DNA of 64,000 nt. It comes from Nitrospirales bacterium. GTDB taxonomy: Bacteria; Nitrospirota; Nitrospiria; Nitrospirales; UBA8639. The notes under the pieces are model-generated. The model did no database searches, was not told the DNA's origin, and was given only the letters and a program-made list of their open reading frames with translations. The stretch is taken from contig OY820905.2 in NCBI GenBank assembly GCA_963555755.3, forward strand, positions 736,001 through 800,000, written 5' to 3'. Position numbers and translations under genes: made by a program. Positions within the stretch are counted from its first letter, which is position 1. Each line of letters begins with the position of its first letter. This document shows positions 58,714 to 64,000 of this stretch, piece by piece.

Positions 58714-60823
58714 TTGTTATTCCTTAAATTAATAAATAATCAGGTATCAGCCATCAGCGTTTTGGCTTTGCTTGCTATTGGAACCTTCGCCACCTGCGTT
58801 TATGCGGGCGGCTTCACTGTCAAGAGCGGCGAGACTGTGATGATTACACAGGAACTCGACGGTGATGACAAAGGCGTGGTAGAAAAAGGCGGCGCTATAA
58901 AACCAACCAATAGTGGTGATAATGGCATTAACATAACCGGTAATGATAACACTGCGATCAACAACGGTTCTATCGAGACGGTGGGAGGCGCAGGGCCATG
59001 GTATTCACTTATTCGAATCCGACAACAACACCATCAACAACGACGGTTCTATAGAGACGATGGGTCACAGGGCCTTTGGCATTTACTTAGACGAATCCCT
59101 CAACAATGCCATCAACAACAACGGTTCTATAGAGACGGAGGTACGAGGTGCTTCTGGCATTTACTTAGACAAATCCCTCAACAATACCGTCAACAACAAC
59201 GGTTCTATAGAGACGATGGGAGACTTTGCCTCTGGCATTTCCTTATCCGGTTCCACCACCAATACCATCAACAACAACGGTTCTATAAAGACGGTGGGAA
59301 AAGACTCCTATGGCATTTCCTTATCAGCTTTCACCACTAATACCGTCAACAACAACGGTTCTATAGAGACGATGGGAGAAGGTGCCCATGGCATTTTATT
59401 ATTCGCTTCCGACACCAATAATACCATCAACAACAACGGTTCTATAAAGACGATGGGAGAAGGTGCCCATGGCATTTTCTTATTTTTTTCCGATGCCAAT
59501 ACCATCAATAACGACGGAGATATCTTTGTTACTGGCGTTGACAGCTTTGCTGTTTTGGATGATGGAAACAAGCAGAATAAAAACAATACCCTAAACCTGT
59601 TTTCCCGTTCGCGAATCATTGGCCGAATTGATTTTGGCGATGGAGTAGATACGGTCAATTTCCATTTCAAGAAAGCGGGTTTTTCTTCCACGTTGAGTTT
59701 TGAGAATACGGAGTCTATCAACCTGCATGACGACAATATGGTGAATGTGGGAGGCCTGACAGGAGTTTATTCGGTGGTTGATCCCACCGGTCAGTCAGTG
59801 AACGGAGCTGTTCTTGGTTCGATCACAAAAGATATCCATGGAATCCTGACCCGCCGTACGAGTCGGATGTCGAACACGAATCCCTCGCAACTGGCTTCGA
59901 CCCGTGTGGAACCGGGAATGATGTCCTCTTCCCAAAAATCACAAGTCTGGGCGAGCGGTTTCGGCGCCCACCGTTCACGCGATGAAGATGGCCGTGTTCT
60001 CGCTTATGACCACGTTTATTACGGCGGCGTCGCCGGTTATGAAACGGCAACCCGTCAAGCGAGTATCGGCTTCATGGCGGGCTACGCTCAATCTGATGTA
60101 AGAACAGATTTAACCTCGATCAACACCGATAGCGAAAGTTATTTTGTCGGCGCTTATGGTCAGAAAAGATTCGCGAGCTTCAACCTGGACGCCTCTTTGC
60201 TCGCCGGTTACGAGCGCTATGACAACGACCGTATTGTGGTCGATAACCTGAATAAGTTTGAAACTGCCGAGGCGGCTTATGACTCTTTTTTTCTAAGTCC
60301 GTCAGTCACTTTGAGTAGCGAAATCAGGGTATTCGACAAGATAGCGCTTCGTCCTTCAGTAACCGGGATTTACAGCGTCGCATGGTATGACGATTACACC
60401 GAATCGGGCACAACCCGATCTAACCTGTCCATCGACGACCGATTCTCGCATGCCCTGATCGGAAAACTGCAAATTGCGGCGGCGTATGTGTTCAGCAATG
60501 GCAGCGAAATAGGGATTAGAGGAGGCGGCAGGTATCGCTATACGATCAATGATGATGTTGACACCACATTAGCGGGAACGTCTTTTCGATATGCCGCGGC
60601 CGGAGACGACACTTACTTTGCAGCCATAGCGGGCGCCAATGCGCGCGTTGCGTTAATGGACAGTATCAACCTGACCGCCAATGCGGAATATGCATTCGAC
60701 GATGGCATTGAAACCACCCTGTCAGGCCAACTCGTCCTTGAATTTATTGGCTCTTTAGCAGAATCTTCGGCCTTGAATTTATTGGCTCTTCAGCAGAATC
60801 TGTGGGTGACTTGGTTCAAATAG
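58714..60823 (+). pseudogene. Repeat-rich autotransporter copy B, +1 frameshift at about 58991-58997
   Basis: Barrel nearly identical to copy A; repeats NNTINNNGSIETMG. Confidence 0.88.
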
Positions 60824-60975
60824 AATAGAATAGGAATAGGGGTCAAATCTTTGAATTGAAATAGAAATAGGGTAGAGTAGAACACTGGTGCTCACCTGGA
60901 GCTACTCTCGAACGCTTCGACGCACGCGTCTACAACGGACCACAGCAGTCAGCCATTCCCAGCGTCCCCTCATCA

Positions 60976-62969
60976 GTAGGGTCGAGGACTGGCGCGCCAA
61001 CGGTAGGGTTCGGTGGCTCCTCCACCCCTTTCGGAATGGGCCTCAGTCCGACTCCCCTGGTCACGGTTCCAGTCCCCGCCACCTCAAACCCGGCGTGCTG
61101 ATTTCCAGCACCGGGCTTTCCTGGATGCTTCACCTCAAGGGTTATGTGACCTATCAGCCTGGAAGGACTTTCATGCCGACCCGTTGTACCGCACTCGGTA
61201 ATCTCCATATAAGCCAAGTACCGTGTAGAGCCAAACCTTACTCCACCTCTTCCAGCCAAAACCTCGACGGTGGCGCACTCGCATCATGTGCCGCCGGACC
61301 TTCCGCTCCACCCAATCCTTCACGTAGGATAAACACCGACTCGCATGCCCAATCCGGAAGTAGTTCACCCAGCCCCGTACGATCGGATTGATCATGGCGA
61401 TCATCCGTCCCACCGGCTGGGATTGCCCGCGTCGGAACACTTCCTTGAGCTTCCGCAGCAACGCGGTGCGCCGCTTCACCTTCGGTATGTACTGCGGGCG
61501 CCACACTCCACGCCGCGACCGCACACGCCGAAAGTCAAAGCCCAGAAAGCCGAAGCTGCCTCCCTGACTCAGGTCCACGATTCGGCTCTTCTCCTCATTC
61601 ACCTGAAGGTCTAATTGGGCCAACGCCTCTCGCAGCTTCCGCTCCGCAACCTGCGCCAGTTGTGCGTGGCGGCGATAGCCATCCACTAACACGACGAGGT
61701 CATCCGCAAACCGGACATACTCGAGATACGTATACTGGCCCTGCCGGGTTGTCTCCTTCAGCTGCTCCAGCCTCTCATCCACTTCCGTGAGATAGAGGTT
61801 GGCCAGCAGCGGGGAAATCACACCCCCTTGAGGCACCCCACGCGGGCCGGACGCCTTGACGATGAGTTTCACCAGCCGCAGGATCGCGGGATCCTGGATG
61901 CGTCGGGCCACCTTCGCCAGCAGCCGGTCATGCCGCACCGTGTCGAAGAAGGCCGCCAGATCCACATCAATCACTCGCGTCTTGTTCTGCACCATCGCCT
62001 GAGCCACCCGGCCAATCGCCTGGTGGGCTGTCCGTTTCGGTCGATACCCATACGACCCATCACGAAAATCCGCCTCAAAGATCGGTTCCAGCAGGAGCTT
62101 GAGCGCTCCCTGTACCACGCGGTCCCGAATCGCGGGTATCCCTAAGACGCGGACTCGTCCACCGCCTTTCGAAATCTCCACGTGCCGGTTCCGCATCGGT
62201 CGGTAGGTCTGCGTGACCAGTTCGTCCCGTAGTCGTGCAAGAAAGGGCTCCACCCCCGTGGCCTCGATGCCAGCAAACGTCACCCCATCAATGCCGGGGG
62301 CTCCGTTGTTTTTCTTGGCCATCGAATAGGCCGCGCGTAGCGTCGCCTCTTTGCACACGTGGACGTACAGGCCCCACACCCGCCATCGCTTCTCAGCCTT
62401 CGCCTTGACGTAGAGCCGCTGTCGCAGGTCTTGCAGTGTAATGGACGCCGTTGTCATCTCGTCCCTGCCTCCCATGTTGATCACAGCCTACAGCCAGTAG
62501 GGCTCCTTTGCTCCACAGGCATGACCCTGCTTCCTCGCTCCTACGAGCCCCTCCGCCACCCTCTCGTCTTCGGCTCACTTCCCAGAGAGCTGGTTATAGA
62601 GCCGATCTTCCTCCAGGGATTTCTCCCTGGGACGAGGAGGGCTTCTCCAGTTGCGTCGTCTGTCCTTGCTCCCGTGCTGTCGCTCTCACCCCGCCGGAGT
62701 GGCCAGGCGTCTCAGCCTTGGTTCGCCTGTCCATGCCGTCTTCGTCCTACGGACAGGGACTCGACCTCCGAGGTTTCATACTTTCGAGGCTACCTCTGCG
62801 TTCACTTTCGTTACGGCCCGGGAACTCGCTCACCATCCTCTACGATGGCTTTGTCGATGGGCTTCAGCGTCTCGGTTTCTCTCCACGCTGCCATCCAAGC
62901 TACAGGGCTCAGGCTCTTACCCTGGTGGGCTTGCTTCCCACTGAACAGTCTCGCCTTACCTGGACACAC
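60976..62969 (-). mobile_element. Complete group II intron inserted at the DV/DVI junction of intron O
   Basis: Starts GTGTG and ends CGACCCTAC; DV AAGCCCGGTGCTGGAAATCAGCACGCCGGGTTT; boundaries confirmed by the empty site at 39511/39512. Confidence 0.92.
61171..62457 (-). CDS. ltrA: Group II intron reverse transcriptase/maturase, no endonuclease domain
   Basis: APGIDG, LGIPAIRDRVVQ, PQGGVISPLLAN, RFADD, FLGF, NPIVRGWVNYF. Confidence 0.93.
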   Translation of the reverse strand: MTTASITLQDLRQRLYVKAKAEKRWRVWGLYVHVCKEATLRAAYSMAKKNNGAPGIDGVTFAGIEATGVEPFLARLRDELVTQTYRPMRNRHVEISKGGGRVRVLGIPAIRDRVVQGALKLLLEPIFEADFRDGSYGYRPKRTAHQAIGRVAQAMVQNKTRVIDVDLAAFFDTVRHDRLLAKVARRIQDPAILRLVKLIVKASGPRGVPQGGVISPLLANLYLTEVDERLEQLKETTRQGQYTYLEYVRFADDLVVLVDGYRRHAQLAQVAERKLREALAQLDLQVNEEKSRIVDLSQGGSFGFLGFDFRRVRSRRGVWRPQYIPKVKRRTALLRKLKEVFRRGQSQPVGRMIAMINPIVRGWVNYFRIGHASRCLSYVKDWVERKVRRHMMRVRHRRGFGWKRWSKVWLYTVLGLYGDYRVRYNGSA

Positions 62970-63542
62970 ATCCGTGCGTACAGTTTTCCCGTACACGGCT
63001 TTCCGATGTTCTTCGTCAGAACGCATGCGCCCGTTTCCAGCCAGCTATCGTGGGAAGCTTGAACAAGCCGTATCGAGCATAGAGCATGGCCGTGGGAAAC
63101 TGCGCATACCCTGCCGCCCGGCTTTTCACCTTGTGCCGTTTGCGGAGGTGCGCGCGCAGTCGCTCTTCCACATGCCATTTCACTCGACCCAAGCCCTTGG
63201 AGCTCTTGCGGTAGTGGAAATAGCCCGCCCACCCGCGCACGTACTGGTTGAGCGTCGCCACCACATCAGGGAGCGGAATCGGGGTCCCACCACGAGCCGT
63301 CATCTGTGTCACTCGTGCTTTCGCCCGCTGGATGGATCGGAGGGACGGCTCCACGTGCGGGTAGACTTTCCCGCTCGTGCGTCCCGTCCGGAGACCAAAG
63401 GAAAACCCGAGAAAGTCAAACCGTTCCTGCCTGGCGTTGACTTCCCTGGTTTTCTCCTCATTGAGGCTCAGCCCCAATCCCTCCAGCAAGTGGTGGAGGA
63501 CCGTCATTGACGGAGCCACCTCCCCCGCACAAAGCACCACCA

Positions 63543-64000
63543 GTCGAGTCGCCCCGAGGAACCACCCCTCGAGGCGCTCACAGAACCGGACGTGAACGTC
63601 TCCGCTCATCCGGCTCTTCTTATCTAGCCTGTCCATACACCAACCGCCAGTGAGCAAACAGATTGGGCTGCCGACACGCAATGCGTCGCAACCACTGATC
63701 GGCTCGCCGTTTGTGGCCTCGCAGCCGCTTGAACTTGCGAGTGGCCCACAGCACAAGTTTGCGATCGATGTGCCGGAGGGACCGGTACAACGCCGATTGG
63801 TAGAAGGCACTGTAATAGGTCACCCACCCGCGTATCTTCGCATTGAACATCCGCGCCAGATCGTCGAGCGCTTTATCGCTCCGCAGATGGAGCTGCCAGC
63901 TCCGCACGACCTGGCGGATCGCCTTCCCCGCCTTATTACTGATGGCCGGACTGAAGTTGATGAAGTATTTCCCCCACCGGTTCTTCGACCGCCGTGGGCG
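63543..64000 (-). mobile_element. 3' end of a third group II intron (class D-like IEP, stop at 63620) inserted in the RT of intron O
   Basis: RPRRSKNRWG..NAKIRGWVTYY..PNLFAHW; DV GAGCCGGATGAGCGGAGACGTTCACGTCCGGTTC; ends GCGACTCGAC. Confidence 0.88.

Follow-up and report, generated by a model that had tools for sequence, protein, structure and literature searches.

Three nested group II introns at the end of the window

The stretch of Nitrospirales bacterium DNA analysed here (assembly GCA_963555755.3, contig OY820905.2, positions 736,001 to 800,000; 64,000 nt, hereafter the window, with C1 marking coordinates on the whole contig) ends in three group II introns that are nested one inside the other, all on the minus strand (Table 1). 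The inner intron, both ends of which are fixed by 14 5' and 15 3' junctions in the genome, has the features of a group IIB intron, namely a 5' GUGYG and 3' AY, a domain V (DV) with an AGC triad, a domain VI (DVI), and a reverse transcriptase (RT)/maturase encoded in domain IV (DIV). The Rfam model of domain I, RF02003, matches it at 62806-62943 with 112.6 bits, and RF00029 at 61003-61120 with 36.7 bits (cutoff 40 bits). Its intron-encoded protein (IEP) contains the Pfam domains RVT_1 and GIIM and nothing else, lacks an endonuclease (D/En) domain, and has the RFADD motif that also occurs in 134 of the 160 proteins of the homologue set. In a quick tree of 22 proteins, which held no named g3, g4 or basal class F references and in which the anchor is one of ten g2 members, the IEP clusters with that of B.th.I3 of pBMB67 (49% identity; support of 99 in the Shimodaira-Hasegawa-like approximate likelihood ratio test, SH-aLRT) and separates from the other IEPs of the genome. 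Judged by its FADD motif, the missing D/En domain and its clade with B.th.I3, the inner intron is a member of group g2 of class F.

The inner intron lies one base ahead of the end of the DV of its host intron, which runs from C1:802706, outside the window, to window position 60872, and it cuts the last DV base and all of DVI off from the rest of that host. RF00029 matches the interrupted DV weakly (E 0.065). At C1:228423 the same host occurs as an empty allele in which both exons are contiguous, so the junction is exact, with neither duplication nor loss; the joined window exons differ from this allele at 3 of 139 positions. The host is itself interrupted a second time, in that the third intron is inserted in the host RT gene directly 3' of the RYADD codons, and the protein encoded by the 3' half of that gene shares 97.8% identity with the IEP of the empty allele. 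With an inner intron sitting within an essential element of the outer one, the nesting is that of a twintron. We consider it very probable from these sequences that an intact class F/g2 group IIB intron came to lie one base before the DV end of another intron by ordinary retrohoming, in which its exon-binding sites (EBS1, EBS2 and EBS3) would pair with intron-binding sites (IBS1, IBS2 and IBS3) in the conserved 3' strand of DV.

Table 1. Nested introns and predicted target-reading elements in the window
Feature	Position	Strand	Attributes
Inner group IIB intron	60976..62969	-	1994 nt, GUGUG...CCCUAC, assigned to class F/g2
Inner-intron IEP, RT/maturase	61171..62457	-	428 aa, RFADD
Own DV of inner intron	61086..61118	-	3' strand CGGGUU
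Host DV minus final base	62970..63001	-	AGC triad, G.A replacing usual G.U; descriptor score 14.0
Last host DV base (IBS3, U), linker, DVI	60872..60975	-	ends CUCUAC
3' half of host IEP gene, after RYADD	63016..63542	-	Pfam GIIM
Third group II intron, 3' end	63543..64000	-	1869 nt, starts C1:801411; RF00029 58.4 bits
Id3 hairpin (GUC-GA-GUCC-loop-GGAC-GAA-GAC)	62738..62765	-	seven stem pairs conserved
EBS1, GUCCGU	62749..62754	-	covariation with exon -1 to -6
IBS1, ACGGAU (host DV 3' strand)	62970..62975	-	from sequence; uninterrupted in empty allele C1:228423
delta (U)	62755	-	partner delta' = A at 62791
EBS2, GUAUG	62777..62781	-	reads exon -9 to -13
IBS2, UGUAC (3' strand, upper DV stem)	62978..62982	-	
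EBS3 (A)	62686	-	pairs with first 3'-exon base

The Id3 hairpin and the reading of the DV strand

A first-pass annotation of the window, made by a model from the letters alone, had described a hairpin about 210 nt into the inner intron whose loop would act as EBS1 and pair with the last six exon bases, ACGGAU, taken to be the 3' strand of the host DV. We recovered the hairpin, GTCC-CTGTCCGTA-GGAC, at 62760-62744 on the minus strand, beginning at intron position 210, and reproduced the pairing of its loop GUCCGU with the exon (6/6 pairs, one G.U). The exon bases are indeed the 3' strand of the host DV, with the correction that ACGGAU is not the consensus DV strand, which is ACGGUU, but the G.A variant of this host family, empty allele included. 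Because the chromosome holds 4295 ACGGAY sites, a lone six-base match is weak, and the case for the hairpin is made by comparison among homologues. Across 113 non-redundant exons, positions -1 to -7 have their best mutual-information partners, in order, at 62754 to 62748 of the intron (0.79-1.53 bits, 77-100% paired), and 78 of 114 homologues pair their loop 6/6 with their own exon, against a mean of 6.2 and a maximum of 14 in 500 permutations. Each of the seven stem pairs is conserved in 108-119 of the 119 introns aligned, where compensatory changes also occur. The base 5' of EBS1 (delta) has its mutual-information partner at 62791 (delta'), and this contact is paired in all 119 (CG 88, UA 26, UG 5).

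The remaining contacts were identified in the same way. Exon positions -9 to -12 find their partners at 62781-62778 (0.5-1.0 bits), with 4/4 EBS2 pairing in 40 of 78 introns against 5.5 permuted, the fifth pair being read from the window sequence alone; EBS3 is the top mutual-information partner of exon position +1 and is paired in 88 of the 95 introns with a 3' exon. Position -8 (62977), between IBS1 and IBS2, is a G in 97 of 119 exons of all target types and has no clear RNA partner, from which we infer that it is read by protein or through a non-canonical contact. On this comparative evidence the hairpin is Id3 and its loop EBS1, as the first-pass annotation had supposed; jointly with EBS2 and EBS3, EBS1 reads the DV 3' strand. 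The intron is not of the hairpin-targeting class C (IIC) type, since its EBS1 makes 6-7 bp and its EBS2 covaries; nor is it of the RYADD-homing type, since its IBS1 and IBS2 are DV bases, while the third intron of the window does belong to that type. The homologue set also maps, by natural covariation, the EBS1, EBS2, EBS3 and delta elements of class F/g2.

Genomic copies of the inner intron

The genome holds 14 matches to the IEP at 97% identity or more, and of the corresponding 14 5' junctions 12 are independent sites, the other two being internal to a head-to-tail triple (C1:2165998-2160017). DV ends make up 11 of these 12 independent junctions, two of the occupied DVs being split upstream by an insertion sequence (IS)-like element, and 12 of the 13 non-tandem 3' junctions consist of the last DV base followed by DVI. 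The twelfth site (L002, C1 1560268-1562261) lies in sense inside a single-copy protein gene, which from its translation we take to be formate-tetrahydrofolate ligase-like (fhs-like); the frame across this site stops 33 codons downstream, and the gene may therefore be truncated. The inner intron has an intact open reading frame (ORF), and copies that differ by 0-7 nt stand at different sites. When 40 relatives of the genome were searched at E 1e-120, no close copy turned up in those covered.

The loop of the intron follows the DV that it occupies. All three copies with an EBS1 of GACCGU lie at ACGGUU, and seven of the nine with GUCCGU at ACGGAU or ACGGAC; in two of the GACCGU copies EBS2 changes as well, fitting their hosts. 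The three GACCGU copies look inactive from their sequences (two contain stops and the third an insertion), and this may explain why seven DVs of the ACGGUU type stand empty in the genome. Within the triple, the tandem copies differ from one another by 6-16 nt, a difference that speaks against an artefact of assembly. Experiments on EcKTE56.groEL have shown that an occupied site can be entered again (PMC12584367); EBS3 forms a wobble pair there, and in the present genome that position is a mismatch.

Among the hosts are full-length introns from three IEP families, together with seven ORF-less copies (internal deletions of about 750 nt), each of which the inner intron occupies. Inner copies that differ by 16 nt occur in hosts identical over 450 nt, and inner copies that differ by 3 nt in hosts that are 93% alike, so that host and inner variants do not co-segregate, which points to separate insertions. 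Sequencing runs were examined as contigs (the RNA runs X1, X2 and X18, and runs X12 and X13), a form in which rare species are dropped. Contigs of two metatranscriptomes cover the region and cross both junctions unspliced; a joint skipping the inner intron was not seen in the RNA contigs of X1, X2 and X18, which, as contigs drop rare forms, is evidence neither way. In run X13, whose kind is unrecorded, a contig joins the exons of an ORF-less-type host at a depth about that of its unique flanks, and is most simply an empty DNA allele.

These observations also bear on the idea that a single early DV insertion spread when the whole twintron was copied, or through gene conversion, such that the DV copies in the genome are not separate homing events. 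Under this account one would readily understand why the seven ORF-less hosts are all occupied and 93-100% alike, why a partial duplication lies at C1:2222787-2223275, and why the IBS1 of two GUCCGU copies is mismatched, a trace that conversion could leave. It sits poorly, however, with the occupation of at least three unlike host families, the lack of co-segregation and the intron-free ORF-less host type in the X13 contig, and poorly too with the unrelated hosts in nine phyla that are entered at the same base with matching EBS1 changes (see below). We regard copying as quite improbable here, and for the lineage it is largely refuted.

Target sites across the lineage

Homologous loci were collected from genomes (best 80) and metagenomes (79), giving 159 with IEPs 47-93% identical to the inner one; each scan kept its best 80 matches, and the fractions below describe a sample biased to near relatives. 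Forty-two loci with no usable 5' flank were dropped, leaving 117 evaluable; L132, which has no true 5' end, was excluded. In a fixed-register DV test on the joined exons, 37 of the 117 lie in the DV position, as against 24 of 6360 random positions (a null of 0.4%), and six more, judged by eye, have a DV that is degenerate or partial, with a DVI-like stretch after it, for a total of 43. When loci are collapsed into clusters of 95% IEP identity, 33 of 108 are located in DV (38 including those judged by eye). All DV-located homologues enter at the same DV base, the 43 have 42 different target sequences, the named records among them span nine phyla, and their EBS1 shifts to fit the CGGUU, CGGAU, CGGAA, CGGGU and CAGUU variants. 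The remaining 74 sites, labelled from sequence patterns rather than from a database, comprise 19 with motifs that we take to be IS ends, 6 close to where another intron family has its 5' end, 5 palindromic and 44 others, some of these last in transposase-like frames. Among the sampled homologues DV is the commonest single target of the g2 group.

On a FastTree tree of 128 proteins, which includes 11 called as DV by eye (from the 3' flank or a short 5' flank) and whose deep forks are weak, the DV label changes 19 times against 41.4 when shuffled; it is clustered, and does not form one clade. A clade made of DV members alone was accordingly rejected, given these 19 changes and the 74 of 117 homologues elsewhere. 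Five further genomes were chosen from DV-type members. In the closest relative (IEP 93% identical) all four copies lie in DV, with GACCGU at ACGGUU, and in two others the counts are 4/5 and 7/10, the latter genome (G043) having had 10 of its 17 copies fetched, one of them unreadable.

The other targets merit description in their own right. Two branches, including L044, L052, L058, L060, L063, L073, L128, L131, L143, L151, L155, L166-L170 and others, have their site two bases short of the end of a TTTT-rich motif, which we presume to be an IS terminal repeat from its resemblance to one, with an EBS1 that varies freely to fit. A well-supported branch (L040, L046, L047, L116 and L124) uses palindromic sites resembling those of tyrosine recombinases, and six loci (L028, L029, L036, L106, L114 and L161) have a target about 24 nt after the GUGCG start of group II introns. 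The target of L048 is the end of a DIII-like motif and that of L165 the FLGF codons of an RT gene, while the metagenomic L135 has another intron start directly 3', a second case of tandem insertion.

Weighing the retrohoming reading

Several findings weigh against homing programmed for DV. Two of the nine GUCCGU copies lie at ACGGUU, with a U.U mismatch; two well-matched sites, C1:228423 and 775514, are unoccupied; and EBS3 (A) stands opposite G in the tandem junctions. Among homologues, 74 of 117 lie outside DV, in a sample whose bias to near relatives has been stated, and of the five further genomes one with an EBS1 of AACCGU (G045) has only 1/6 of its copies in DV and another 2/5. Finally, the minimum-energy fold of the single sequence is without Id3, an alternative helix that buries EBS1 being favoured by 6.1 kcal/mol (-185.4 versus -179.3 kcal/mol with Id3 enforced). 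Folding of domain I, which the first-pass annotation had put forward as a check of Id3, thus fails at minimum energy, and because that fold does not form the hairpin the Id3/EBS1 assignment rests on comparison rather than on folding; covariation among homologues does support Id3.

The broader expectations of that annotation fared unevenly. That the inner intron is programmed for DV agrees with 11 of 12 sites here and 4/4 in the closest relative, and the enrichment for DV ends that it anticipated in the 5' flanks of homologues is present (37-43 of 117). Its picture of a lineage that parasitises the catalytic domain of other introns stands as regards the repeated use of DV, and must be narrowed for the 74 homologues elsewhere, where EBS1 is reprogrammed or the site is off-target. 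Likewise the target is the 3' strand of DV, but it is apparently the sequence and not the DV structure that is read: the five non-DV copies of G045 lie at look-alike sites, which, like the fhs-like site, suggests recognition by sequence with DV not obligatory.

Such look-alike sites lend some colour to a different explanation, in which a generalist with a short recognition sequence lands on CGGUU-like sites and the DV copies are survivors of selection, so that enrichment is a matter of filtering. The chromosome offers 204 permissive full matches, and off-target copies number 5/6 in G045 and 2/9 readable ones in G043, beside the copy in the fhs-like gene of this genome. On the other hand, EBS1 is held complementary to DV (AACCGU, AUCCGU, UUCCGU, AACUGU) across IEPs that are 58-70% alike, it shifts with the DV variant, and EBS2 fits the upper stem of DV too; moreover, selection and programming are not exclusive, and filtering would itself keep EBS1 tuned to DV. 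We consider the generalist explanation unlikely, if by no means negligible.

A third possibility is that the target is recognised as a DNA hairpin, with DV extruded at the replication fork as class C introns do with terminators, and EBS1 setting the register only. The site does come after a stable stem-loop, the IEP is without an endonuclease domain, and some sister branches use palindromic sites. Yet EBS2 covaries with bases of the DV stem that could be read only if unpaired; off-target sites fit EBS1 without a DV-like hairpin; and in two occupied hosts the DV 5' strand is displaced by the IS-like element, which may have come before or after the intron. Recognition of the hairpin thus appears highly improbable, and retrohoming guided by base pairing with the DV strand remains our preferred reading.

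Own domain V and possible self-avoidance

An intron that homes to DV carries a DV of its own. In the inner intron the 3' strand of this own DV, CGGGUU, makes 3/6 pairs with the intron's EBS1. Among DV-located members with both elements readable (n=35), 24 have an EBS1 that pairs 6/6 with the target and none has one that does so with the own DV, and the own-DV match is lower than the target match in 33 of 35 and higher in none. Of 97 classified crown members, 5 have a canonical own DV strand (among non-DV members, 2 of 50), and so do 10 of 10 outgroup or long-branch members, although one of these ten, L084, is placed within the crown as a long branch. In a two-state model DV homing is put at the crown root with a probability of 0.92, or 0.96 when off-target copies with a DV-type EBS1 are counted; for these root and own-DV figures kin are non-independent, the tree is poorly resolved and the sample leans toward the query.

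It is tentatively conceivable, and somewhat short of probable, that DV homing was ancestral in the main g2 radiation, that the ancestor was self-immune via a rewritten own DV stem, and that the IS-end, palindrome and other-intron branches are later retargetings which kept the altered DV. We treat the self-avoidance and crown-root figures as a lead rather than a result. If true, the lineage would be a self/non-self hyperparasite of ribozymes, with an EBS1 tracking the DV variants of its hosts, and the present system bears on whether the altered DV of the lineage serves self-avoidance.

A model of homing and splicing

In the mechanism that we propose, the ribonucleoprotein would enter DV in its DNA form by reverse splicing and would read some 12 bases together with the conserved G at -8. 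Primers taken from replication forks have been described for endonuclease-less introns (PMC4424553), and an intron such as this one, without an endonuclease, would prime at forks as well. It would read the sequence and not the DV hairpin, which would explain both the off-target copies and the re-insertion at an occupied site seen in the tandem triple. Until the inner intron leaves, the host ribozyme would be split in its active-site helix; the inner intron would thus have to splice out first, restoring the host active site, after which the host could undergo splicing and spread free of it, giving rise to new empty targets. The harmlessness that the first-pass annotation supposed is plausible as regards the cell, which would lose nothing that it needs, the site lying inside another mobile element. 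The wider g2 group might retarget by EBS mutation among conserved motifs of mobile elements.

Other elements in and around the window

The IS-like element that splits two of the occupied DVs is about 1.86 kb long and itself lies in group II intron DV at C1 775533-777391, 1024326-1026938, 1251116-1252974 and 3058591-3060449 (L175:249-2039). It is unrelated to the inner intron and has 22-bp terminal inverted repeats and an 11-bp target duplication, which in 4/4 copies is the upper stem-loop of DV. Its ORF of about 596 aa matched no Pfam family, and its nearest Atlas clusters (0.98) are labelled 'putative transposase' or hypothetical and share no Pfam family. The element may be a DNA transposon that targets DV.

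The third intron has further copies at C1 6424-8292 and 3056192-3058060, all three lying directly after the RYADD codons of other RT genes. The host intron family apparently starts with GCAUG, not GUGYG (e.g. at C1:802706, 230290 and 1691099), and its target is a dispersed repeat that is entered between TTGACC and CC, with 130 TTTGACCCC sites in the chromosome. Just 3' of the host intron in the window is an autotransporter-like ORF (58714-60823, plus strand) with tandem NNNGSIET repeats and a frameshift near 58950.

Significance and comparison with known systems

Pipelines find introns by DV models, under which a DV broken one base before its end falls below threshold (E 0.065 here), so that hosts of this kind have likely gone unnoticed or been given wrong bounds in surveys. 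The empty allele in the same genome also makes the locus an exact system for testing obligatory sequential splicing. That inner introns gain from a site essential for host splicing is an assumption stated in PMC4649490, and the DV system would make it testable.

What is already known is the class of the intron, homing of introns into introns (at the RT YADD motif and in DIV) and one DV twintron; DV as the habit of a lineage is apparently undescribed. We could not find a literature account of DV as a recurring homing site, subscription journals having been outside the search, and absence from print is not thereby established.

The class F g2 introns Mx.xa.I1, Sg.ce.I1, W.e.I5, Ma.sp.I2 and B.th.I3 of pBMB67 (PMC3552965) resemble the inner intron in having FADD in RT5, no D/En domain, a protein of about 430 aa and an intron of about 1.97-2.0 kb. 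The available part of PMC3552965 lists their loci as transposase, hypothetical protein or 'putative non-coding', with neither an EBS map nor a DV target there. The pBMB67 intron itself differs from ours in EBS1 and target, and its own DV is canonical. It should be noted that B.th.I3 is the name of two introns, that of pBMB67 (g2, in a transposase; PMC3552965 Table S2) and that of strain ATCC 35646 (RYADD; PMC2504315).

The closest parallel in habit is offered by M.a.I5, UA.I3, P.l.I2 and the B. thuringiensis ATCC 35646 intron, which home to RYADD codons (PMC2504315), and by the nested intron arrays of M. acetivorans (PMC4424553). These introns are likewise endonuclease-less, read a conserved retroelement motif with their EBS, form twintrons and so have a perpetual homing site, and the third intron of the window shares the habit of M.a.I5 and P.l.I2. 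Their target, however, is the RT active-site codons in DIV, where the host protein is blocked and the ribozyme left whole (PMC2504315), whereas that of the inner intron is the catalytic helix of the ribozyme.

TeI3/TeI4 of Thermosynechococcus elongatus are similar in that one family entered one conserved site of another repeatedly and independently, the inner copies being nearly identical and the outer ones diverged, and was retargeted through changes of EBS (PMC2882425). That site lies between two start codons in DIV and the inner intron is ORF-less, related to its host and confined to one genome (PMC2882425); the present inner intron is autonomous and occupies unrelated hosts in many phyla. 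Finally, the psbF twintron of Euglena gracilis, the first twintron described, is a group II intron inside the DV of another (PMC8393795). It is a single fixed chloroplast locus, for which the passage in PMC8393795 gives no exact DV position, EBS analysis or recurring target, and in contrast to it the inner intron of the window is mobile, multi-copy and cross-phylum, and enters DV at one fixed base.

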